Positions 40,616 to 51,916 of a stretch of 64,000 nucleotides of DNA are shown piece after piece. Location: positions 240,746-304,745 of the forward strand of contig CAZTNI010000001.1 in assembly GCA_964615415.1 (NCBI GenBank), in the 5' to 3' direction. How positions within the stretch are numbered: the stretch's first letter is position 1; each line of letters opens with the position of its first letter. The position numbers and the translations under genes were made by a program. Under the pieces are notes generated by a model, which made no database searches, was not told the DNA's origin, and saw nothing but the letters and a program-made list of their open reading frames with translations. Origin of the DNA: an uncultured Candidatus Saccharibacteria bacterium (GTDB lineage Bacteria > Patescibacteriota > Minisyncoccia > Phycocordibacterales > SBAW01).

Positions 40616-40619
40616 CAAA

Positions 40620-40652
40620 AGCCGCTCCCTTGGGAGCGGCTTTTTCTTTTGG
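40620..40652 (+). terminator. Rho-independent terminator, same repeated family
   Basis: AAAAGCCGCTCCCTTGGGAGCGGCTTTTTCTTTT. Confidence 0.75.
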
Positions 40653-41018: not shown

Positions 41019-44000
41019 ATGAATTTCTTCCCACTTCTTATCGCGGGCCCAGGCAAAATAGCACTTCGATTGATGGGAATGATTCTTGTCGTCTCATTTT
41101 TTCTTTCTCCTCTTGCCCCTGTGTTTGCGCAAGAAGCAGATCCTGGAGCTGGTAGCGAAACTCCTGTTGCTGAAGAGTTGCTAACTGAAGAACCCTCTGA
41201 AGCAGATACTTCTACAGAAACTTCTGAAGAACCTGTGGTTGAAGAATCTGATCCAACGCCAACTGACCCAACAGAAGAAACTTCTTCTGAAGAAGTTTCA
41301 GAGTCGGAAATTTCCGAACTCACTGAAGAATCGGAAGAAGACTCACTACTAGAAGAAGAACTTGAACCAGAAGAAGACTCGCTGATGTCATCATCAGGAG
41401 GAGATCAGGGTACTGGAGAAGCTGTCGATTATGCAGCAGCTGGTGCACAAGCGAAGGTGGATGCATTCGGAGCTCTTGTGCAGAAAATTCAAATTGAAGT
41501 TCCTCCTGGTCGCAACGGTCTTCAGCCAGATTTATCTCTGCTTTACAACAGTCTGCAGTATGAAGATGGAAGTCTGGTGGGTTTTGGATGGGGGTTAACG
41601 ATACCGTATATTGAACGACTCAATCGCACTGGTGTTGATCGTTTGTATACCGATAATTATTTTTCGTCCTCTATGTATGGAGAATTAGCCTCCACGAGTG
41701 TCCCAGGTGAATATCGTCCAAGAACTGAAAACGGAGATTTTGTTAAATTTGTTTTTCAAAATAATATCTGGACTGCGTACGATAAACAGGGAACACAATA
41801 CAAATACGGTTCGACTACAGGATCTCAGGTGTACGACACTGCAAGCTCAACACAGGTTGGTGTATGGATGCTGCAGGAAGTTCGCGATACAAACAACAAC
41901 TACATAAAATATAACTATCAAAAAAGTGATAATCAGATTTATCCTTCGACGATTATCTATACAGGCAACGAATCTACCGACGGCATCTTCTCTGTAAGCT
42001 TTTCAAGACAAACACGACCAGATCCTATCTTTAGCTACAAGTATGGTTTTTTGGTAGAGACAAAAGATAGAATAAACCAAATTACAGTAGCGGTGAGTAG
42101 CTCGACTGTCCGCTCATACGCGCTTGCGTATACCTCCGGAAATAACGGGTATCGTTCTATGCTTTCTTCTGTAACTGAAACGTATGTTAATCCTGATGGT
42201 ACTAGTGTTGCGTATGCGCCGTGGCAGTTTGCTTATACTAACCAAACGCTTTCCTTTACTGATCAGGTTGAGAAAGAGGAAGGGGGATATAGGTCGCCAG
42301 CTTTCGTGCGTACCGACTTAAATGGCAACGGTCTTCTCGATATTGTCGCTTCATTTGTTGACTGGTCTCCTGCAGTGCAGAAAAATCTCCGTGTCATAAA
42401 CAATGGAAACTTTTCATTTACTAGCTCGGGTACGTTCTCTCCGGGATCAACAGACGTTCAAGTTACTTGGGCAAATGCTAATCCTTCTCCTAGTTGGCTT
42501 GTTTCCAGCGATCCTGGTGTGCGCCTCATGGACATAAATGGTGATGCGCTGCCAGATGTCGTGCAAAGTTATGTGTGCCAAGTAACATGCTCGACCTCAA
42601 TACAACAATATTTCTTGAATCTTGGTAACGGTCAGTGGCAGTCTACTGCAGCTACTACAACAGGATGGAATTATATTGTACGTGACCAACCAGGCACTTC
42701 TATTCCGCACGCCACAATCGCTATCATTGGAAACGTAAACGGCGACACTGTAGATGATATTTTTCCATACGAAGTAAATTATTTCGCAAGTACAGGTGGA
42801 GGTTCTCCACGTTGGACAAGCAACCAAGGTCAGCTGGTAGATCTTAACCATGACGGATTGGATGATGCATTTGCTCGTTTCGGTACAACTGCTTCTACAA
42901 GTATTAATAGAGGGGGGACAATAGGAATTACCACTGCATCAACCTCATTCAGCTACACAGCGACCTTTAATGGGCCGAGCGCCTATGAAGACAACGTAGA
43001 CAAAGGAATTCGCATCATGGATATAAATAATGATGGTCTTCCGGACCTCGTACGCTCATATCTTTTCTCGGGCGGTTACTCTTCTCATGGTGATGGCCAG
43101 TATGTGCCGCAAGATACAAGTTCTTCGACGCAAATTTATATAAACACAGGTGTTGGGTGGACCAGAATGCAAAACCCTCCAGCTATTCCCGTTATCTCAA
43201 ATCCTTCAAGTCAAAGTGGTTTTTGGACAGGTGCTCAACTTATTGAAGCGGTGTGGGACCAGGATGGTGATGGAGATGCAGAGATTGGTACCTATACCAA
43301 TAACATGAGTCGACAAGATTTGTTGAAGCAAATTACTTTGCCGACGGGAGGGTATGTGTATGCAACAAGTACTCCTACAACACAGCAATTCACCGGTTCT
43401 CAGGCTCACCACCCGAATTCTGTAGTACCTGTGTGGACTGTGTCGGAAATTACACACGATGATGGAAATGGTACACGAGAGACCAGTCGCTATTCTTACA
43501 AAGACGGAACACTCTGGTATGGTGGCATTAATAATCGAAAATATGCAGGCTTCGCAAGCACTACAGAGTCATACTATGGTCTTACTACCAAGTATTACCA
43601 TCAGGGAGATGAGACAGATTCTTCTCGTGGGGAATACCAAGATTCATTTGCAAAGATTGGCAAAATGTATCGTGTAGAGAGAACTAATAACGATGGAGTG
43701 GTGTATGCAAAGACTATCTACAAATGGGATCAGGCTACCACTACGTACGGAAATGTGTTCGCAAAATTAGTGCAGAAAGTAGACATGGAGTACAACGGCG
43801 ACGGTACTCACAAGGATCGTGCAGAGACATATACCTACGACAATGCCTCGGGCAATCTTACTGAAAAGAAGGAGTGGGGAGAGGTGACAGCATCAGACGA
43901 TGGAAGTTTCTCTGACACTGGGAGCGACATATTTGTCACAACGTACACCTATGCAACAGTAAACGCTTCTTCTACTGTTAGTCTTTTAGCGTCACAGTTA

Positions 44001-47000
44001 AAAACAGATCAAGGCGCTAATACTGTTAATGAGTCGAAGTTCTATTACGATTCGCAGTCATTTGGCTCCGCAACAGTAGGTAACCTTACAAAAGCAGAAA
44101 AGAGAATTAACCCAACTACTTTTGCAAGTACTACTAAGACATACAACAGCTACGGTTTACCGACCCAACAAAAGGATGAGAATAATAACGCTACTACGTA
44201 TGTATACGATGCGTTTAATCTCTACCCTGCAACCTCTACCAATGCCCTAAGTCAAAGTACAAAATATCAGTACAACTATGCGCTGGGCAAACTTGCTACA
44301 ACTACTGACTCAAATAATCAGACCTGGGTTAAAAAGTATGACGGCCATGGCCGTTTGCTTGAAGTGCAAGTGCCTGACCCTGCAACCTCAACTGCGCGTG
44401 TAATAAAGACTACCTACACGTATACCGATACTCCGCTTGCTGTGTCGGTAAAAAAGAGTTCGTACCTCGACGCTACTAACATAGTAGATTCTTACACGTA
44501 CTACGATGGTTTGGGGCATGCGATTCAAACCAAACAAGAAGCAGAAGGGGGAGAGTGGATTACTAAAGATGTAAGTTACAACGTGCGTGGTCGAGTATTC
44601 ACAGAAACACTTCCGTATCCAACAACAAATTACGTAAAGAGTTCTCCTACTGCTACTACAACCCTGTATACCAACTACATGTATGATCCGCTTAACCGAG
44701 TAACAGAATCACACACGGTCGTTGGCACTACAACAAATACGTATGATGACTGGAAGAAGACAGTTACGAACCCGCTTGGCATTGCGAAGTCATTCTATAA
44801 CGATGCGTACGATAATCTAGTTCGTGTAGATGAGACTAATAGCGGCTCTACTTATACAACGTTATATACGTGGGATGGAAATGGAGCGCTAACGGGTATA
44901 ACGGATGCTCTCAGTAACATACGCTCGTTTACGTACGACATGTTGGGTCGTCGCACTCAGGCAACAGACCTGCGTGCTTCTGGAGACGGCACATACGGTA
45001 CGTATACATATACCTACGATCCGGCGGGGAACATGAAGTCTAAGGTAACTCCGGTTGGGTCAACCATTAACTACACCTACGATGCGCTTAATCGCCTCAA
45101 GACAGAAGATTATACAGGTCAGGCAGGCACAGAAACCACCTATACCTATGACGCATGTACGCTCGGTGCAGGGAAGTTGTGCGTGGCAAGCAGTACTGCT
45201 TCAGTCGTGGGGTATGCATATACCCCAGCGGGTCTTGTTAAGACTGCAACCACAACTGTGCTAGGCACGCCAACCGTATTTACTACATCGAGTACATATG
45301 ATCGGCAGGGAAATCAGACAACTCTTACATACCCTGACGGTATGGAAGTGAAATACACCTATAATGCGGGTGGCTACATAGAAACCGTTCAGAAGAAAGA
45401 GGCGAGCGAAGGATCATTCTCAAACATAGTGTCTAACTTTAATTACTCACCCGTTGGTCAAGTAAGTCGAACCGAGTATGCAAATGGAGCGGTAACTACC
45501 AATACGTATGATCCTGCCACTCTCTACAGACTCAGCAATAAACAAACTATTCTCGGTGGTTCGCAGCAGGCACAAAACATCAGCTACAGCTACGACGCTT
45601 TGGGAAATATTTTGCAAGTTACCGATGCGTCAAATACGGCAGCTGCAAAAACGGTTAACTACTCGTACGACGACTTGTCTCGCCTTGTTACTGCATCTAC
45701 CACCAACGCAACAAGTAGTCCGAACTATAGATACACATATGCATACAATGCTCTGGGTAATATCACGAACGGTCCACTCGGGGTCTACACATACGCAGGT
45801 ACGAACTATGCAAACCCGCATGCAGCAACTGCTATAGCGACAACTTCAGGAGGTGGAGGAGGCGTTGCGACAACCACGACTCATACAGTATTTGCCGACG
45901 CCCTTACCCCAGGATGGAACGATTGGTCATACAATGCGGTACTCGACCTTAACGCAACTACCACGTACGCAGGAAGCAAAGCTATCAAGGTTACCTACTC
46001 AGTCGCTTGGGGTGGTTCATATTTGCAAAAGACTGCTGGAATCCAAGTTGGTACCTCTACTGCGCTTCAACTCGCCTTGCGTTCAACAAGTTCATCGCCT
46101 GACGTTACCATCGATATATATGGTACCAACGACGCGTATCTTGGATACGCTGACCCTACTGACTATATCGGCGGTCCTATTGCTGCTAACACGTGGTATC
46201 TACTTACTATCCCGTTTTCAGATTTTGGCGCCACTTCAACTATCAGTGGCATCGTAGTTGCACGCGACACTCCAGGTGTTCTCTATATCGATGAATTAAA
46301 GACTGTTGCCACATCTACAGGCGGAGGAGGTTCTGTGGCAACTACCACGCTTGCATACGATGCGAACGGCAACCTTACCTCAGACGGTACATTTACCTAT
46401 ACATGGGATTATCTCAACCGCATGACTCAGTCTGGTAACGGTACTGCCACATCAACCTATGCATACGATCAAGATGGTAATCGCGTAAAAATAGTTGAAG
46501 CAGGCGTCACCACAATCTTCCCAAACAAGTTCTACAACGCAATGCTTGGTGGTGCTGGCACTACTACAAAGCACATATATGCGGGAGACATGCTCCTTTC
46601 TACGATAGAGAATACAAATACTGCCGCTGCGACAACCACTACACACACGGTGTTTACCGACGCACTTGCTGCGGGCTGGAACGACTGGTCGTATAACGCT
46701 ACGCTCAACGTTAACGAAACTGCAGTTGTCTACAGCGGTGCTAAGTCAGCAAAGATCACATACAGCGCACCATGGGGCGGAGCATACATACAAAAAACGG
46801 GTGTAAATGTATCAACCTCTACGGCACTGCAGTTCGCAATCCGCCAACCTGTCACAACTGTTGATGTCGACCTCGATATCTATGGCGCAAACGATCAATA
46901 CCTTGGATACGTTAATATTGAGAATTTTGTGCCCGGAGGTGTGCTCCTTTCCAATACATGGCAGGTGGCAACGATACCGCTGTCAGCTATGGGCGCAACT

Positions 47001-48059
47001 TCTACGATCACGGGTATTGTGTTTGCGCGAGATGCAACAGGTACTCTGTATTTGGATGATATAAAATTCATCGCAACCTCTACCTCAGGAAGCCCTGCAA
47101 CATCAACGGTCCGCTACATCCATACAGATCATCTTGGTGGTACCAACGTTGTCACAAATGCGAGTGGTGCGGTGGTAGAAACAATTGACTACTATCCATA
47201 TGGAGAGACTCGTCTTGATGCGAAGGTTGGGACTTATGGAGGAGAAAAGAATAAATATGCGGGTACTGAGTATGACGCAGGTAGTGGTTTGAACTACATG
47301 CAGGCACGTTATCAAAGCCCAACTCGCGGAAACTTCATATCGCAGGATCCGGTGTTCTGGGAGATTGATATTACTAATGATGGTAAAGCAGTTCTCTCAA
47401 ACCCTCAACTTCAAAATTCATACAGTTATGCTGGCAATAATCCAATCGTAAGTAAAGATCCATCTGGAAGATTCCTAGACACCATTCTCGATTTAGGATT
47501 TATAGCTTACGATGTATACAAAGTTGGCCAGGCGGCCTTCACTGGCGGAAATGTTGGTGAGCAGTTAGGATACTTAGGGCTTGATGTAGCTGGGGCAGCC
47601 GTACCATTTGTCACAGGTGCGGGAGTAGCTGCTAGAGGAGTTAAAGCTGCTAATGCGGTAGCAGATGCAGCCGGCGGCGCCAACAAAGCAGGTAATGCTG
47701 CTCAGGCGGCTAATACCGCAGTAAAATCACTACCGGACTCGACGTTGGTCTGCAGAGGAGGAGGTTGCTCGGTGGAAAGTTTTATTAAGGGCAGTAATGA
47801 AGGAAGGGCGGGTCTTAATCCAAGTCCAACAACTCCTCTTACTGGGGTATCAGTAAATATGGGGGGTTCAAAAAATGCACTTATTAGCAATTTGCCTGGT
47901 GACTACCCTAAAGCAGGTTTTACATTCACCAATCAAATACAAAAACTTGGTGGCAATGCAGTATCTAGCCCTTCTCTTAATAATCCTTTCCACGGTCTAA
48001 TCAACGGCCTCAGTGCCCAGCAATTGAATAATATTTTTAAAGTAGAAAAGATAAAATAA
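41019..48059 (+). CDS. Giant secreted Tc-toxin/RHS-type polymorphic toxin: SpvB/TcB-like N-terminal domain, FG-GAP-like region, YD/RHS repeats, RHS repeat-associated core, unassigned C-terminal toxin domain
   Basis: 2346-aa ORF with a signal peptide and an acidic linker. The SpvB motif (…GLQPDLSLLYNSLQYEDGSLVGFGWGLTIPYIERLNRTGVDRLY…) is followed by many YD repeats (YTYDALNRL, YSYDALGNI, YAYDANGNL, YAYDQDGNR). The RHS core reads RYIHTDHLGGTNVVTNASGAVVETIDYYPYGE…ARYQSPTRGNFISQDPVFW. Confidence 0.85.
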   Translation: MNFFPLLIAGPGKIALRLMGMILVVSFFLSPLAPVFAQEADPGAGSETPVAEELLTEEPSEADTSTETSEEPVVEESDPTPTDPTEETSSEEVSESEISELTEESEEDSLLEEELEPEEDSLMSSSGGDQGTGEAVDYAAAGAQAKVDAFGALVQKIQIEVPPGRNGLQPDLSLLYNSLQYEDGSLVGFGWGLTIPYIERLNRTGVDRLYTDNYFSSSMYGELASTSVPGEYRPRTENGDFVKFVFQNNIWTAYDKQGTQYKYGSTTGSQVYDTASSTQVGVWMLQEVRDTNNNYIKYNYQKSDNQIYPSTIIYTGNESTDGIFSVSFSRQTRPDPIFSYKYGFLVETKDRINQITVAVSSSTVRSYALAYTSGNNGYRSMLSSVTETYVNPDGTSVAYAPWQFAYTNQTLSFTDQVEKEEGGYRSPAFVRTDLNGNGLLDIVASFVDWSPAVQKNLRVINNGNFSFTSSGTFSPGSTDVQVTWANANPSPSWLVSSDPGVRLMDINGDALPDVVQSYVCQVTCSTSIQQYFLNLGNGQWQSTAATTTGWNYIVRDQPGTSIPHATIAIIGNVNGDTVDDIFPYEVNYFASTGGGSPRWTSNQGQLVDLNHDGLDDAFARFGTTASTSINRGGTIGITTASTSFSYTATFNGPSAYEDNVDKGIRIMDINNDGLPDLVRSYLFSGGYSSHGDGQYVPQDTSSSTQIYINTGVGWTRMQNPPAIPVISNPSSQSGFWTGAQLIEAVWDQDGDGDAEIGTYTNNMSRQDLLKQITLPTGGYVYATSTPTTQQFTGSQAHHPNSVVPVWTVSEITHDDGNGTRETSRYSYKDGTLWYGGINNRKYAGFASTTESYYGLTTKYYHQGDETDSSRGEYQDSFAKIGKMYRVERTNNDGVVYAKTIYKWDQATTTYGNVFAKLVQKVDMEYNGDGTHKDRAETYTYDNASGNLTEKKEWGEVTASDDGSFSDTGSDIFVTTYTYATVNASSTVSLLASQLKTDQGANTVNESKFYYDSQSFGSATVGNLTKAEKRINPTTFASTTKTYNSYGLPTQQKDENNNATTYVYDAFNLYPATSTNALSQSTKYQYNYALGKLATTTDSNNQTWVKKYDGHGRLLEVQVPDPATSTARVIKTTYTYTDTPLAVSVKKSSYLDATNIVDSYTYYDGLGHAIQTKQEAEGGEWITKDVSYNVRGRVFTETLPYPTTNYVKSSPTATTTLYTNYMYDPLNRVTESHTVVGTTTNTYDDWKKTVTNPLGIAKSFYNDAYDNLVRVDETNSGSTYTTLYTWDGNGALTGITDALSNIRSFTYDMLGRRTQATDLRASGDGTYGTYTYTYDPAGNMKSKVTPVGSTINYTYDALNRLKTEDYTGQAGTETTYTYDACTLGAGKLCVASSTASVVGYAYTPAGLVKTATTTVLGTPTVFTTSSTYDRQGNQTTLTYPDGMEVKYTYNAGGYIETVQKKEASEGSFSNIVSNFNYSPVGQVSRTEYANGAVTTNTYDPATLYRLSNKQTILGGSQQAQNISYSYDALGNILQVTDASNTAAAKTVNYSYDDLSRLVTASTTNATSSPNYRYTYAYNALGNITNGPLGVYTYAGTNYANPHAATAIATTSGGGGGVATTTTHTVFADALTPGWNDWSYNAVLDLNATTTYAGSKAIKVTYSVAWGGSYLQKTAGIQVGTSTALQLALRSTSSSPDVTIDIYGTNDAYLGYADPTDYIGGPIAANTWYLLTIPFSDFGATSTISGIVVARDTPGVLYIDELKTVATSTGGGGSVATTTLAYDANGNLTSDGTFTYTWDYLNRMTQSGNGTATSTYAYDQDGNRVKIVEAGVTTIFPNKFYNAMLGGAGTTTKHIYAGDMLLSTIENTNTAAATTTTHTVFTDALAAGWNDWSYNATLNVNETAVVYSGAKSAKITYSAPWGGAYIQKTGVNVSTSTALQFAIRQPVTTVDVDLDIYGANDQYLGYVNIENFVPGGVLLSNTWQVATIPLSAMGATSTITGIVFARDATGTLYLDDIKFIATSTSGSPATSTVRYIHTDHLGGTNVVTNASGAVVETIDYYPYGETRLDAKVGTYGGEKNKYAGTEYDAGSGLNYMQARYQSPTRGNFISQDPVFWEIDITNDGKAVLSNPQLQNSYSYAGNNPIVSKDPSGRFLDTILDLGFIAYDVYKVGQAAFTGGNVGEQLGYLGLDVAGAAVPFVTGAGVAARGVKAANAVADAAGGANKAGNAAQAANTAVKSLPDSTLVCRGGGCSVESFIKGSNEGRAGLNPSPTTPLTGVSVNMGGSKNALISNLPGDYPKAGFTFTNQIQKLGGNAVSSPSLNNPFHGLINGLSAQQLNNIFKVEKIK

Positions 48060-48060
48060 T

Positions 48061-48513
48061 ATGAAAATAAAAAATGAATCAGATTTTGTAAATGCAGATA
48101 GTAAATTGAATCTGCGGAAAATCTCTTCTAATGAAATAGAGATAACCGACGTCTATGACATCTGGGATGGGCCTTTAAGTGGTAGCTGTCTCTGGGAAAA
48201 TAAAGATTATTATTTTTTCTCTTTTGATCAACTTGAGGATGATAAATCTGGTGATCGCTGGCCAAGAAAATACATTTTAGTTAGCTTAGATTCTGAGCAA
48301 AAGCAAACTGAAGAAGAATTAAAAAACCTTTATTCGGCTTTGAAAAAAGGTGAATTTACCGCCGAAGAATATAGCAACAAATTAGAAAGAATTCCAAAGT
48401 TACAAATAGAAAATAAGCAAATTGTTGGATGGTTTGATTCTGAAGATGTTGAAAAAAATGGAACTCCAACAAGATTCATGCAATCCTATTTTTCGTGGAA
48501 AGAAAAGAATTAA
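48061..48513 (+). CDS. Candidate cognate immunity protein of the RHS C-terminal toxin
   Basis: 150-aa ORF starting 2 nt after the RHS stop. It is markedly AT-rich relative to the RHS gene. That is the typical position and composition for an RhsI-type immunity gene. Confidence 0.55.
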   Translation: MKIKNESDFVNADSKLNLRKISSNEIEITDVYDIWDGPLSGSCLWENKDYYFFSFDQLEDDKSGDRWPRKYILVSLDSEQKQTEEELKNLYSALKKGEFTAEEYSNKLERIPKLQIENKQIVGWFDSEDVEKNGTPTRFMQSYFSWKEKN

Positions 48514-48608: not shown

Positions 48609-48797
48609 ATGCATATTAAAATTGATAAGGATGTAGGTACGGCTTATATTTACATAGCGGACAACCCAGAAGATCTAAAAGGCTCTGTCCGTTCCGAGCC
48701 AGTCAACTCAGATCTGATTATTGACTACACTCCAGACGGAAAATTATTTGGAATTGAAATTCTTAACCTGAAACTTCTCGATCTTGGTGAGAAATGA
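48609..48797 (+). CDS. DUF2283-like small protein (toxin-antitoxin associated family)
   Basis: MHIKIDKDVGTAYIYIADNPEDLKGSVRSEPVNSDLIIDYTPDGKLFGIEILNLKLL resembles DUF2283 (antitoxin partner of DUF4258). Confidence 0.5.
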   Translation: MHIKIDKDVGTAYIYIADNPEDLKGSVRSEPVNSDLIIDYTPDGKLFGIEILNLKLLDLGEK

Positions 48798-48818: not shown

Positions 48819-49144
48819 ATGATTAATAATTCACGGGATAAATATATTAATCTTGCAGTTCAGTATGGTGAGTATAAAAAGAATGGAGAAGCTGAACTTG
48901 CCAACAAGGTACATCAGCAACTCTCTGAAACATCCGACGCAATAAAAAAATTGATCCAGAGGGTTTTGATTTCATTGCTAGTCCTATGAATCACCCTGAA
49001 CCATTTGTAAGACTGTGGGCCGCAACTGATTCAAAAGATTATAAACCAAAGGAGGCGAGAGCAACTTTACGGGAACTCAAATACAACAAAGACGTAGCGG
49101 GGCTAGATGCTTGGGCGTTGTTAAGCATGTGGGGAGAGGAATAA
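48819..49144 (+). pseudogene. Frameshifted (or phase-variable) ~105-aa gene split at an A7 homopolymer
   Basis: Frame 1 (ATG 48819) reads MINNSRDKYINLAVQYGEYKKNGEAELANKVHQQLSETSDAIKK and terminates after the A7 run at 48943-48949. The -1/+1 frame continues as …IDPEGFDFIASPMNHPEPFVRLWAATDSKDYKPKEARATLRELKYNKDVAGLDAWALLSMWGEE* (stop at 49142-49144). Confidence 0.5.
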
Positions 49145-49253: not shown

Positions 49254-49288
49254 CGCCCCGACACTTCATGTGTCGGGGCTGTTTTTTA
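49254..49288 (-). terminator. Rho-independent terminator immediately downstream of the minus-strand gene 49286-49837
   Basis: CGCCCCGACAC-TTCA-TGTGTCGGGGC hairpin with flanking T/A tracts. Confidence 0.7.
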
Positions 49289-49837
49289 TCCTGCTTTTTC
49301 GACTGCGGCGCGGGCAGTTTCTTCCATCGTCTTGTAGATAGGGAAATCGTACCCCAGAAGGAGCGTAGTGTTACGCTCTACCATGTCGAGTCCGGAAAAT
49401 CCTTCCTCGCCGCCTATAACGACACGAGTCTCTTTTCGGTAGAACATGTGCGCTCGCCACTCGCCAAGTTCGCCGTAGGAGTCGCGGCCGTAGGGGCCGG
49501 CTTCCGGTGCACGGGGCTCGCGTTGCTCTTCTGCCCAAAAGAGGATGCAGCCTCGCGGGGTGTGCCACGCGGCCCGTGCAAGGTAGTGCCGCTCCCAGTC
49601 GAGCTGTCGATCAAAGATGTCCGCACCCTCTTGCAGGAAGTAGCCAGCAAGTGGGTGTGTGTTATTCCACCTTGCGGGGCAGGCTATGACGCAGTTGCCA
49701 TCCGTCGCTTGGCGCAGGTGCACGACCATTTCGTGTTGCCAGTCGCCGCCACCGCGGATAGGCCCGCCAAGGAAGAAGAAGGGAAGGTCTTCGAATTCCC
49801 GAAGGTCGGGACAATATTTCGGAACAATAATGCGCAT
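49286..49837 (-). CDS. Nucleoside 2-deoxyribosyltransferase-like (Rossmann/SLOG-type) protein, GC-rich
   Basis: N-terminal FFFLGGPIRGGGDW motif typical of the nucleoside 2-deoxyribosyltransferase/LOG-like fold. GC content is much higher than the flanking AT-rich genes. The family assignment is tentative. Confidence 0.45.
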   Translation of the reverse strand: MRIIVPKYCPDLREFEDLPFFFLGGPIRGGGDWQHEMVVHLRQATDGNCVIACPARWNNTHPLAGYFLQEGADIFDRQLDWERHYLARAAWHTPRGCILFWAEEQREPRAPEAGPYGRDSYGELGEWRAHMFYRKETRVVIGGEEGFSGLDMVERNTTLLLGYDFPIYKTMEETARAAVEKAG

Positions 49838-50201: not shown

Positions 50202-50450
50202 ATGGAATTAGTATTACAAATAGGCATTCTTGTGATAGGAGGCTGGTTTGCTTATATAGGAGGTCGGACTTTGTTCTCAAAAAAATACTACGTATCAAAG
50301 ATTGAAAATATAAAAGGTAAAACGGTTGATAATGCATATAAAAATCTGCCACGCTGGAGAATATGGTTTACTCGGTACGATTATTCGACACAATGGCTGA
50401 TTCTTGGTGTCGGGCTACTCACTCTTTTTGTCTTTAGTTTATTTAAGTAA
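50202..50450 (+). CDS. Small 2-TM membrane protein (orphan immunity-like)
   Basis: 82 aa, AT-rich. First of three tandem small TM genes. Confidence 0.4.
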   Translation: MELVLQIGILVIGGWFAYIGGRTLFSKKYYVSKIENIKGKTVDNAYKNLPRWRIWFTRYDYSTQWLILGVGLLTLFVFSLFK

Positions 50451-50456
50451 ATTCTT

Positions 50457-50723
50457 ATGGATGTTCAACAACTTATACTCACTATCCTTGGAACTGGTTT
50501 AGTCATATTTTGCTACTTTAACTGGGTTAAAGCCAAAGATAAGGAATTTCTATTCTTAGGAGTATCTGCTCTGATAGGTTTGTTATTTGCGGGTGCAAAA
50601 TATCTTCCTGTTTCTTCTGAATTTAATCAAGCAAGGGCCGGCATAGGAGTTATCGTTCTTTCAATTCTGTTCCTTTTAGTTTTACGAATGGGATATAAGT
50701 TGTGGTTCAAAAAAAGAAAATGA
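50457..50723 (+). CDS. Small 2-TM membrane protein (orphan immunity-like)
   Basis: 88 aa, AT-rich. Confidence 0.4.
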   Translation: MDVQQLILTILGTGLVIFCYFNWVKAKDKEFLFLGVSALIGLLFAGAKYLPVSSEFNQARAGIGVIVLSILFLLVLRMGYKLWFKKRK

Positions 50724-50750
50724 TCCATATTTAAGTTATTAACATATCTT

Positions 50751-51002
50751 ATGTTGGATTCTTTTTTAATCGTATTGGTCCAGGCTGGAATCTCAGTGAT
50801 TGTAGGAGTAATGGCAATTTTTTACAGGAAACGCCTGACTCGTGAATTTACAGCAAAATTTATCCAGGTATATGGAAATTTTTTCAATTCTAAAAAAGTT
50901 TTTACTTCAAAGTTCTTCAATGATTATTTAGAAGTGGGTTTTGTAGTATTTGGAATTTGCGCCTTGATATTTGCTTTTTTCAATATTGTTAGGTCGATAT
51001 AA
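50751..51002 (+). CDS. Small 2-TM membrane protein (orphan immunity-like)
   Basis: 83 aa, AT-rich. Confidence 0.4.
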   Translation: MLDSFLIVLVQAGISVIVGVMAIFYRKRLTREFTAKFIQVYGNFFNSKKVFTSKFFNDYLEVGFVVFGICALIFAFFNIVRSI

Positions 51003-51015
51003 AATATTTAAGTCG

Positions 51016-51339
51016 ATGAGCAAGACTTTTAGCGAAAAGGTGGTGGAACTCGCACTTTCTGTACCGCCTGGGCGGGTGACTACTTATGGCCGGATTGCTA
51101 TTGCGGCAGGGGGAGGAAGCATGGCCTCGCAAAGCATTTCTAATATTCTTTGGCGCGCGCAGCAGGAAAGAGGAATAAAAAATATACCCTGGCACCGGAT
51201 AGTCTATGCCGATGGAAAAGTGTGGCTCGACGAAGAGCATAAAAAGAAGAGACTGGCGTTGTATAAGAAGGAGAAAATTGTCTTAGATAAAAATAATAGG
51301 ATAGAAAATTTCGTAGATAAACTTTGGGAGTTTAAATAA
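51016..51339 (+). CDS. Alkyltransferase-like protein (ATL; Ogt C-terminal DNA-binding domain with Trp replacing the active-site Cys)
   Basis: VTTYGRIA…PWHRIV: the Ogt PCHRV motif carries W instead of C, which is diagnostic of ATL DNA-damage sensors. Confidence 0.7.
   Translation: MSKTFSEKVVELALSVPPGRVTTYGRIAIAAGGGSMASQSISNILWRAQQERGIKNIPWHRIVYADGKVWLDEEHKKKRLALYKKEKIVLDKNNRIENFVDKLWEFK
51301..51339. repeat. Left copy of a 39-bp imperfect direct repeat flanking the DUF2726 gene (right copy 51901-51939)
   Basis: ATAGAAAATTTCGTAGATAAACTTTGGGAGTTTAAATAA aligns with CCAGAAAACTTCGTAGACAAACTTTGGAAGTTTAAGTAG at about 32 of 39 positions. Both copies span the stop codon of the preceding gene. Confidence 0.75.
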
Positions 51340-51364: not shown

Positions 51365-51916
51365 ATGGATGAGCTACAGATTATATCCTCAATTTCGCCA
51401 CAAACTCTCGGCATTTTAATTTTTGGAATAGTGATATTTGTTGCCGCTGTGTTGTTGGGATTGTCTGTAAAGGAAAAAGTAAACACACCGGTTACCAAAA
51501 TACCAAGCTTTTATAAGAAGAAAGAATATCTTTTTGACTCCATCTCAGAATTTAATTTACATAAAACTCTTGTAGAACTTTTTAGCGATCGTTTTTATAT
51601 TTTCTCTCAAATTCAATACAGTCACCTGGTCGAACCTAAACCAGATCTTTGGTGGGAAATGCGAAGACATAGAAGCAGAATTGATAGAAAATCCGCAGAT
51701 TTTGTCTTGTGTGACAAAGAACGTGTTGTACCACAGCTCGTGATCGAATTAGACGGCAGTAGTCATGAGCTAGAAAGGAAGCAAGAAAGAGATCAATTTA
51801 TAAACGAGACTATGGAAGCAGTGGGTCTTCCTATCCTGCATCTATATACGAATCGATTGAATAAGGACTACGTAAAAGAGGAGGTGGAAAGAATATTGTC
51901 CCAGAAAACTTCGTAG
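51365..51916 (+). CDS. DUF2726-type (PD-(D/E)xK/Vsr-like) nuclease domain protein with N-terminal TM
   Basis: ADFVLCDKERVVPQLVIELDGSSHE…RDQFINETMEAVGLPILHL. Confidence 0.6.
   Translation: MDELQIISSISPQTLGILIFGIVIFVAAVLLGLSVKEKVNTPVTKIPSFYKKKEYLFDSISEFNLHKTLVELFSDRFYIFSQIQYSHLVEPKPDLWWEMRRHRSRIDRKSADFVLCDKERVVPQLVIELDGSSHELERKQERDQFINETMEAVGLPILHLYTNRLNKDYVKEEVERILSQKTS

Follow-up and report, generated by a model that had tools for sequence, protein, structure and literature searches.

Toxins carried at the C-terminus of Rhs proteins together with an immunity gene are an ordinary and well known type of system, and they have been a productive source of new enzymology, recently through TreTu, Tre23, RhsP2, TreThr and Tne5. 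The triads of ADP-ribosyltransferases (ARTs) lie on strands 1, 2 and 5, with the catalytic Glu at the start of strand 5 (PMC9825190, PMC12340436, PMC13617354). In Tre1-Tri1, TreX-TriX and TreThr, which form the R-[ST]-E clade (PMC11606950, PMC13617354), an Rhs C-terminal ART, whose Arg and Ser lie on strands 1 and 2, respectively, is followed directly by its immunity gene. Non-canonical triads are known from active Rhs toxins of this fold, namely R-H-h in TreTu (PMC9825190) and R-Y-E in RhsP2 (PMC12340436), and Tne5, an NADase, has a Lys/Glu active site (PMC13285283); such variants can be RNA transferases or pure NAD(P)+ glycohydrolases (PMC12340436, PMC13285283). We analysed a stretch of 64,000 nucleotides, hereafter the window, from an uncultured Candidatus Saccharibacteria bacterium (assembly GCA_964615415.1, contig CAZTNI010000001.1, positions 240,746 to 304,745 of the forward strand). 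It encodes a 2346-aa Rhs protein and, immediately behind it, a 150-aa protein of a family that we have designated family A. An earlier note on this DNA had proposed that the two form a toxin/immunity pair.

The rhs open reading frame (ORF) is 7041 nt long and ends in a TAA stop codon at 48057-48059. A single base separates this codon from the ATG of the 150-aa gene at 48061, which placed the small gene just behind the RHS stop, as the note had stated. The note had also described the small gene as much more AT-rich than rhs, and this was evident from its GC content of 0.318 against 0.453 for the RHS body. The pre-toxin linker had a GC content of 0.516, the last 112 codons of rhs 0.410 and the whole window 0.481. 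There were composition steps at every module boundary of the rhs locus, and the toxin domain and the downstream ORF were the most AT-rich part of the cassette. By our own estimate, chance would very rarely leave a 150-codon frame open at 32% GC (approximately 1e-5 per start), and the product is moreover conserved in the 17 homologues described below.

Four independent RHS loci were found to carry a family A gene directly after the same toxin domain, at a distance of 1-8 nt, counted as the free bases from the toxin stop to the start of family A. The gap was 1 nt behind the RHS protein of the window, the gene order of which was identical on three Logan contigs (L001-L003), and 8 nt behind an RHS fragment in L004/L005. 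It was 7 nt in L006, where the RHS protein exceeds 3300 aa and an Imm33-like gene lies behind that of family A, and 8 nt behind an RHS fragment in L027/L028, the toxin of which was just 37% identical to that of the window. The linkers that precede the toxin differed among the four loci, which indicates that the toxin and family A travel as a cassette. A fifth pair is probably represented by P0009, with a 1-nt spacing after a 510-aa partial gene. Three further copies of family A were orphans (L007, L008 and L021). The copy in L007 was located in an array of small genes with Barstar and DUF4272 genes and that in L021 behind a transposase-like gene, a pattern that the immunity genes of polymorphic toxins would be expected to show (Zhang et al. 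2012, PMC3482391). The two proteins of the window were also complementary in charge, with a pI of 9.6 for the toxin domain and 4.7 for its partner. The synteny at four loci, the orphan arrays and the C-terminal position of the toxin domain in approximately 190 clusters, described below, all support the pair that had been proposed. Judged from these genomic comparisons, the C-terminal domain of rhs and the 150-aa protein are very probably a cognate toxin/immunity pair, in which the former would be toxic and the latter would bind it.

The 150-aa protein, which the note had taken to be acidic and cytoplasmic, contained 30 Asp and Glu residues against 22 Lys and Arg residues and had a pI of 4.74. 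As its maximum Kyte-Doolittle mean over 19 residues was only 0.36, it has neither a transmembrane segment nor a signal peptide, in agreement with that description. Seventeen family A homologues were found with 41-100% identity (E 1e-19 to 1e-94), and the invariant motifs of the family were DGPLSG, (W)P(R)KY and (G)WF. The protein had no Pfam or NCBIfam match, no PDB sequence match by profile and no structural relative, and matched none of the known immunity families (Pfam Imm/SUKH/Barstar-type; ARH-type Tri1) by sequence or fold. Membership of an unrelated housekeeping family had been named beforehand as an argument against the pair; comparisons with Pfam, NCBIfam, PDB and structures assigned the protein to none. 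The blocks of lowest confidence in its monomer model, residues 31-40 and 61-70, contain the DGPLSG and WPRKY loops, which on this model are possible interface loops. When genomes and metagenomes were scanned with the immunity profile, one close orphan, that of L021, was obtained and otherwise only distant relatives with 21-34% identity (L012-L017 and L022-L026). The latter were encoded by metagenome-assembled genomes of Planctomycetota, Anaerolineae and Thermoanaerobaculia and retain both the N-terminal sheet and the GWF motif of the C-terminus; as they do not lie beside this toxin, they say nothing about pairing.

The variable C-terminus of the Rhs protein had been thought to start at 47370. 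The TIGR03696 core, however, runs to residue 2150 and ends with the sequence NPIVSKDPSG, followed by R, at nt 47468, so the variable part starts at 47469, approximately 100 nt later. The DPSG, a DPxG motif, is the presumed autoproteolysis and recombination boundary. The C-terminal extension behind it consists of two modules, the linker and the terminal toxin domain. The linker, which carries amphipathic and Gly/Ala-rich hydrophobic stretches, showed 45-64% identity to proteins (P0001-P0006) that end in HNH (PF01844/PF14279), PF15520 or unrecognised domains, and the sequence common to these relatives was FLDTIxDxGFIAYDxY...LGLDVAGAAVPFxTGxG. The 112-aa toxin domain in turn recurs behind quite different linkers and scaffolds in L004, L006, L019 and L027. 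As the linker occurs with other toxins and the toxin with other linkers, there are two recombination joints, one between core and linker and one between linker and toxin, and the linker is a mobile module in its own right. A PT-TG pre-toxin domain, considered as a candidate for the linker, gave no Pfam match at E<=1 and is not claimed.

A word-indexed search with the whole 196-aa C-terminus returned only relatives of the linker, in which the first 36-55% was matched, and missed the toxin family and even the self-hit. The family was found by searching with the terminal domain alone and by running HMMER exhaustively over 1.84 billion representatives, which revealed 190 clusters at E<=1e-3, 16 of which reached E<=1e-10. 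With no fewer than 190 clusters at 50% identity the family is widespread, although it matches no Pfam-A or NCBIfam model and, by sequence, no solved structure. In 143 of the 161 matched stretches the domain ended no more than 17 residues from the C-terminus of the protein. Its carriers ranged from orphans of approximately 110 aa to proteins of 3093 aa; those scanned bear RHS repeats, TcdB_midN/FG-GAP or PT-HINT, and their source names, where present, were only 'RHS repeat-associated protein'. One protein (P0047, 1163 aa, with DUF11/CARDB repeats and four partial matches) was treated as a likely spurious member. The toxin domain of the window and 35 diverse members had no Pfam match (E<=10) and no NCBIfam match (E<=1), tblastn of a typical member against plasmids returned no match, and literature searches on the motif VCRGG and on Patescibacteria Rhs toxins returned nothing relevant. 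The statement of the earlier note that neither protein has a recognisable motif was thus borne out by Pfam and NCBIfam; for the toxin domain it can be replaced, on the structural model described below, by a divergent ADP-ribosyltransferase fold with an R-S-H constellation.

Alignment of 148 members showed G14, S44 and H91 (domain numbering) to be invariant and R12 to be present in 147 of them. Conservation exceeded 90% at G13, C16, F21, G24, G66, G77, G78 and G96, and the window toxin retains all of the invariant residues of the family. A Cys-His peptidase, composed of C2245/C2250 and H2325, was considered and rejected: the cysteines were only 81% and 92% conserved and are replaced by Val or Asn in other members.

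An AlphaFold2 model of the toxin domain, built on a 35-sequence alignment, had a pLDDT of 95.9 and a pTM of 0.87, with strands at positions 9-13, 43-47, 64-69, 79-82, 91-95 and 107-110. These six strands agree with the split beta-sheet of the ART fold (strand order 4-5-2/1-3-6). Foldseek ranked Tpt1, AvrPphF and KptA first, with a best E of 0.16 that is not significant alone. Tpt1, which is not a toxin, combines an H-H-h triad with an additional RNA-binding lobe that bears an R-H-R-R tetrad. The match to Tpt1/KptA (PDB 9ld3, 8tg3, 7yw2) was limited to the NAD+-binding ART lobe, spanning 77-85 residues with 9-11% identity. Further structural neighbours include Tse2, DarT, SdeA, CopC, TreX, LT, TccC3, C3 and Certhrax and, ranked lower, RES toxins, Tne2, TreTu, pertussis toxin and Tse6. 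The model places R12 on strand 1 and S44 on strand 2, and strand 5 opens with H91, so that the domain resembles an R-S-E-type ART with His in place of Glu. The canonical triads (R-[ST]-E, H-Y-[EDQ] and H-H-h) were absent from strands 1, 2 and 5, and no Glu, Asp or Gln was conserved. An R-S-H enzyme is nevertheless plausible, because TreTu, RhsP2 and Tne5 show that active sites of this fold can be non-canonical. On the evidence of the model, the toxin domain probably adopts an ART-superfamily fold and, by analogy with described toxins, could either transfer ADP-ribose or solely cleave NAD+.

Comparison with TreTu-TriTu (Salmonella Rhs1/Rhs-main; PDB 7zhl; PMC9825190) revealed several likenesses. 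In both systems a minimal ART-fold domain, of approximately 113 aa in TreTu, follows the RHS core, the triad is unorthodox, in that strand 1 bears an Arg but strand 5 lacks the canonical Glu, and an archaeal RNA 2'-phosphotransferase is among the closest structural neighbours. Both also have a small protein encoded downstream, which in TreTu-TriTu is the immunity protein and occludes the cleft and in the window is proposed to do so. The two differ in that the triad of TreTu is R-H-h (or R-S-E displaced) and that of the window toxin R-S-H, and in that TreTu is T6SS/PAAR-associated (type VI secretion system), whereas the window Rhs carries SpvB/FG-GAP behind a Sec signal; TriTu and the 150-aa protein are unrelated. 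The R-[ST]-E clade shares with the window toxin the Arg of strand 1, the Ser of strand 2 and an immunity gene, in the window a candidate one, directly downstream, but Tri1 is an ADP-ribosylhydrolase and the 150-aa protein has no such domain in a Pfam scan. RhsP2 of P. aeruginosa, which targets RNA (PMC12340436), and Tne5 of P. gergoviae (PMC13285283) are likewise Rhs-borne ART folds with non-canonical sites; they differ from the window toxin in their catalytic residues and trafficking domains. The window toxin has no detectable sequence relation to solved ARTs including RhsP2 (PDB 7RT7), Tne5 lying outside the sequence comparison.

The remainder of the Rhs protein begins with a Sec-type signal peptide (aa 1-37, by eye, ending in PVFA before QE), which is separated from SpvB by an acidic low-complexity stretch. 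Pfam matches were obtained to SpvB (E 1.5e-13), to FG-GAP_3 and to RHS_repeat PF05593 (E 8.3e-26) in 11 stretches, and the NCBIfam YD repeat TIGR01643 matched with E 2.1e-15. The protein thus has the RHS/YD repeats, the DPxG core and the exchanged C-terminal domain of an RHS/YD polymorphic toxin. The whole-protein Pfam scan matched SpvB, FG-GAP_3 and RHS only; there was no PAAR, FIX, VgrG-binding, LXG or haemagglutinin-type module, and no T6SS gene was found among the scanned neighbours. In overall build the protein resembles TcB-TcC (the BC cocoon of ABC toxins) and the WapA-type RHS toxins of Gram-positive bacteria, which also combine an SpvB and FG-GAP/TcdB-type N-terminal part with an RHS shell, a core and a variable toxin and are exported Sec-dependently without PAAR or VgrG. 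It differs from TcB-TcC in that no TcA-like gene was matched by Pfam among the flanking ORFs scanned, and from both in having two additional 146-aa repeats inside the RHS region. An immunity gene next to the toxin points to a bacterial target, unlike that of TcB-TcC.

Taken together, we propose that the 2346-aa Rhs protein is exported by Sec and that its RHS shell, plugged by SpvB/FG-GAP, encloses its own C-terminal extension, which would be freed by cleavage at the boundary between DPSG and R. The cargo would be a 112-aa basic minimal ART-fold enzyme that, having entered the target cell by some route, uses up NAD+ in its cytoplasm, either by hydrolysing it or by modifying an essential protein or nucleic acid with ADP-ribose. 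Its active site would consist of Arg2246 on strand 1, Ser2278 on strand 2 and His2325 on strand 5, the last replacing the canonical Glu. The co-translated acidic 150-aa protein would bind the toxin in the cytoplasm of the producer and block the cleft, and in this way would shield the producer and its siblings. We hold this account as a whole, from the Sec-exported RHS shell through the NAD+-consuming ART-fold toxin to the 150-aa immunity protein, with moderate confidence.

Several observations weigh against it. Profile and sequence searches linked the toxin domain to no solved ART among PDB sequences and to no Pfam ART family. Position 103 of the domain is Glu in 63% of members and Asn in the window toxin, leaving no conserved acidic residue; with no conserved acid at the catalytic position, canonical ADP-ribosyl transfer is not guaranteed. 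The convergence of Arg, Ser and His on one cleft of the model is deduced from strand order, not from coordinates. At the level of the pair, in L019 the toxin is followed first by an unrelated 116-aa ORF and only then, as the second ORF, by the family A gene, and toxins 45-50% identical to that of the window (P0024, P0025 and P0030) precede an unrelated family B of approximately 116-122 aa, for which hhalign gave a probability of 0.3% against family A. The toxin of L020 has yet another small ORF downstream, and the distant relatives of family A stand alone and not beside this toxin. Five toxin/immunity pairs showed no co-divergence (rho 0.14), a sample too small to inform. Finally, no PAAR, VgrG, LXG or TcA partner that would account for delivery was seen at the locus.

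The strongest competing explanation accepts the pair and disputes the chemistry: the ART-like scaffold would no longer use NAD+, and its Arg, Ser and His would act on a phosphate-bearing substrate by RNA cleavage or phosphotransfer, or the domain would act by binding alone. The missing catalytic Glu would fit this, as Arg, His and Ser are together typical of phosphoryl chemistry, and so would the finding that RNA 2'-phosphotransferases are the nearest structures to the toxin model; Tse2 and the ART-like domain of CNF are, moreover, ART-like folds without demonstrated ART activity (PMC9825190). However, Tpt1 is itself NAD+-dependent, the R-S-E clade binds NAD+ through the Arg of strand 1 and the Ser of strand 2, and nearly all structural neighbours of the toxin model bind NAD+, no nuclease fold being among the matches. 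We therefore consider a toxin that does not use NAD+ unlikely, though deserving of attention.

An NAD+-consuming toxin with a cognate immunity protein is also to be preferred to the explanation that the 150-aa ORF is a chaperone, an adaptor or a hitch-hiker, with protection coming from another gene or being needless because the target is eukaryotic, as for a Tc-type BC. This improbable explanation draws on the SpvB/FG-GAP/RHS scaffold, which is that of the TcB-TcC insecticidal toxins, and on the intervening ORF of L019, the different downstream family behind close toxin relatives and the solitary distant relatives of family A. It does not account for the four independent loci that hold the gene 1-8 nt from the toxin stop despite differing linkers and scaffolds, nor for the orphan copies among Barstar- and DUF4272-type genes; the 150-aa protein is also small, acidic and cytoplasmic and, with the toxin, the most AT-rich part of the cassette, and no TcA-like gene was detected by Pfam among the flanking ORFs scanned. 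It is very improbable that the locus is a decaying or inactive remnant, that is, an AT-rich insert that was acquired recently, has ceased to be expressed or delivered and is neighboured by small ORFs that are pseudogenes, since the frameshift-split gene at 48819-49144 and the composition steps at each module boundary are countered by an intact 7-kb ORF in a window of 48% GC, by the retention of every invariant family residue, by an intact immunity gene and by the identical gene order on three Logan contigs.

As far as can be told from sequence comparison, the two domain families and the R-S-H constellation match nothing in the libraries and literature searched. We suggest tentatively that the 112-aa domain founds an undescribed ART clade, characterised by R-S-H and by a reaction or target new for Rhs ARTs (e.g. 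modification of phosphate or nucleic-acid ends, or His-dependent NAD+ cleavage), and that several unrelated immunity families (A, B and others in L019 and L020) neutralise it. If true, this would offer a natural system for the study of immunity re-invention, and the unrelated downstream proteins behind close toxin relatives bear on the evolution of immunity specificity. The R-S-H constellation would be the fourth non-canonical active-site solution in an ART fold and would test the indispensability of the strand-5 glutamate. The 150-aa protein represents a second unannotated family, and hundreds of tails of 'RHS repeat-associated proteins', together with the adjoining 'hypothetical proteins', could be labelled by annotators.

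Table 1. Features of the rhs locus in the window, and family B genes on other contigs.
Feature	Position	Strand	Details
Bidirectional terminator-like hairpin	40617-40644	.	upstream of rhs
rhs gene	41019-48059	+	2346 aa; signal peptide, acidic low-complexity stretch, SpvB, FG-GAP, RHS repeats, core, C-terminal toxin
Internal repeat, first copy	45879-46316	+	aa 1621-1766; 146-aa repeat; no Pfam match
Internal repeat, second copy	46641-47081	+	aa 1875-2021; 146-aa repeat; no Pfam match
RHS repeat-associated core	47190-47468	+	aa 2058-2150; TIGR03696, 51.4 bits (cutoff 32.5), model positions 1-75 of 76
Pre-toxin linker	47469-47720	+	aa 2151-2234; FLDTILDLGFIAYDVY...LGLDVAGAAVPFVTGAG, then Ala/Gly/Asn-rich spacer; GC 0.516; no Pfam match
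Terminal toxin domain	47721-48056	+	aa 2235-2346; 112 aa; pI 9.6; predicted divergent ADP-ribosyltransferase fold
Arg2246 (domain position 12)	47754-47756	+	V-C-R-G-G, strand 1; 147/148
Ser2278 (domain position 44)	47850-47852	+	G-V-S-V-N, strand 2; 148/148
His2325 (domain position 91)	47991-47993	+	N-P-x-H, first residue of strand 5; 148/148
Candidate cognate immunity gene (family A)	48061-48513	+	150 aa; pI 4.74
DUF2283 small ORF	48609-48797	+	62 aa; Pfam E 1.6e-10
Two small ORFs, halves of one DUF2019-like gene	48819-49144	+	56 and 52 aa
Bidirectional terminator-like hairpin	49255-49279	.	10 pairs, 8 GC, T-run
Family B gene	L009 6500-6868		family of ~116-122 aa, LKSLPKVEVSFQDDF...
Family B gene	L011 3314-3661
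Family B gene	L018 8134-8484

The two 146-aa repeats of the Rhs protein, located in the distal RHS region, were 59% identical to each other, and a Thr/Ala/Ser-rich spacer stands before each of them. On the shell they may serve as binding modules exposed at the surface. The toxins of L009 and L011 were found to be short orphan modules beside a Y1 transposase; that of L009 lies behind a full RHS gene and that of L011 by RHS gene fragments.

The two hairpins (Table 1) flank rhs and four small AT-rich ORFs. The hairpin at 49255-49279 is the first strong terminator-like site past rhs on the plus strand, none being found between the end of rhs and 49255. The DUF2283 ORF comes directly behind the immunity gene, shares its AT-rich tail, which lacks a terminator, and is possibly in the same transcription unit as rhs and the immunity gene. 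The 56-aa and 52-aa ORFs that follow are joined by a -1 shift, or by one extra A, at an in-frame A_AAA_AAA run (A7, 48944-48950). The match of the fused product to PF09450 spans the junction but, with E 0.0015 and 18.9 bits, falls short of the cutoff of 23.3. The split was also present on the three Logan contigs; it could represent a sequencing error, a pseudogene or slippage, and the two ORFs are a possible orphan immunity-type gene or pseudogene.

A 183-aa ORF (FFLGGPIRGGGDWQ...) without a Pfam match is encoded on the minus strand between 49286 and 49837, just past the second bidirectional terminator. It coincides with a sharp GC spike of 0.61-0.65 at 49300-49750, and gene callers differ on the strand of this region (L001 vs L002). 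Pfam scanning of the neighbouring ORFs yielded matches to a response regulator and to ordinary or unknown-function genes, several ORFs having no match. The first downstream genes with a Pfam match encode a protein with the DNA-binding domain of 6-O-methylguanine-DNA-methyltransferase (50971-51339) and a DUF2726/DUF559 protein (51365-51916). They are preceded by several unannotated ORFs of 80-90 aa at 50202-51002, and the genes between 50202 and 51916 look like a small island of accessory genes.

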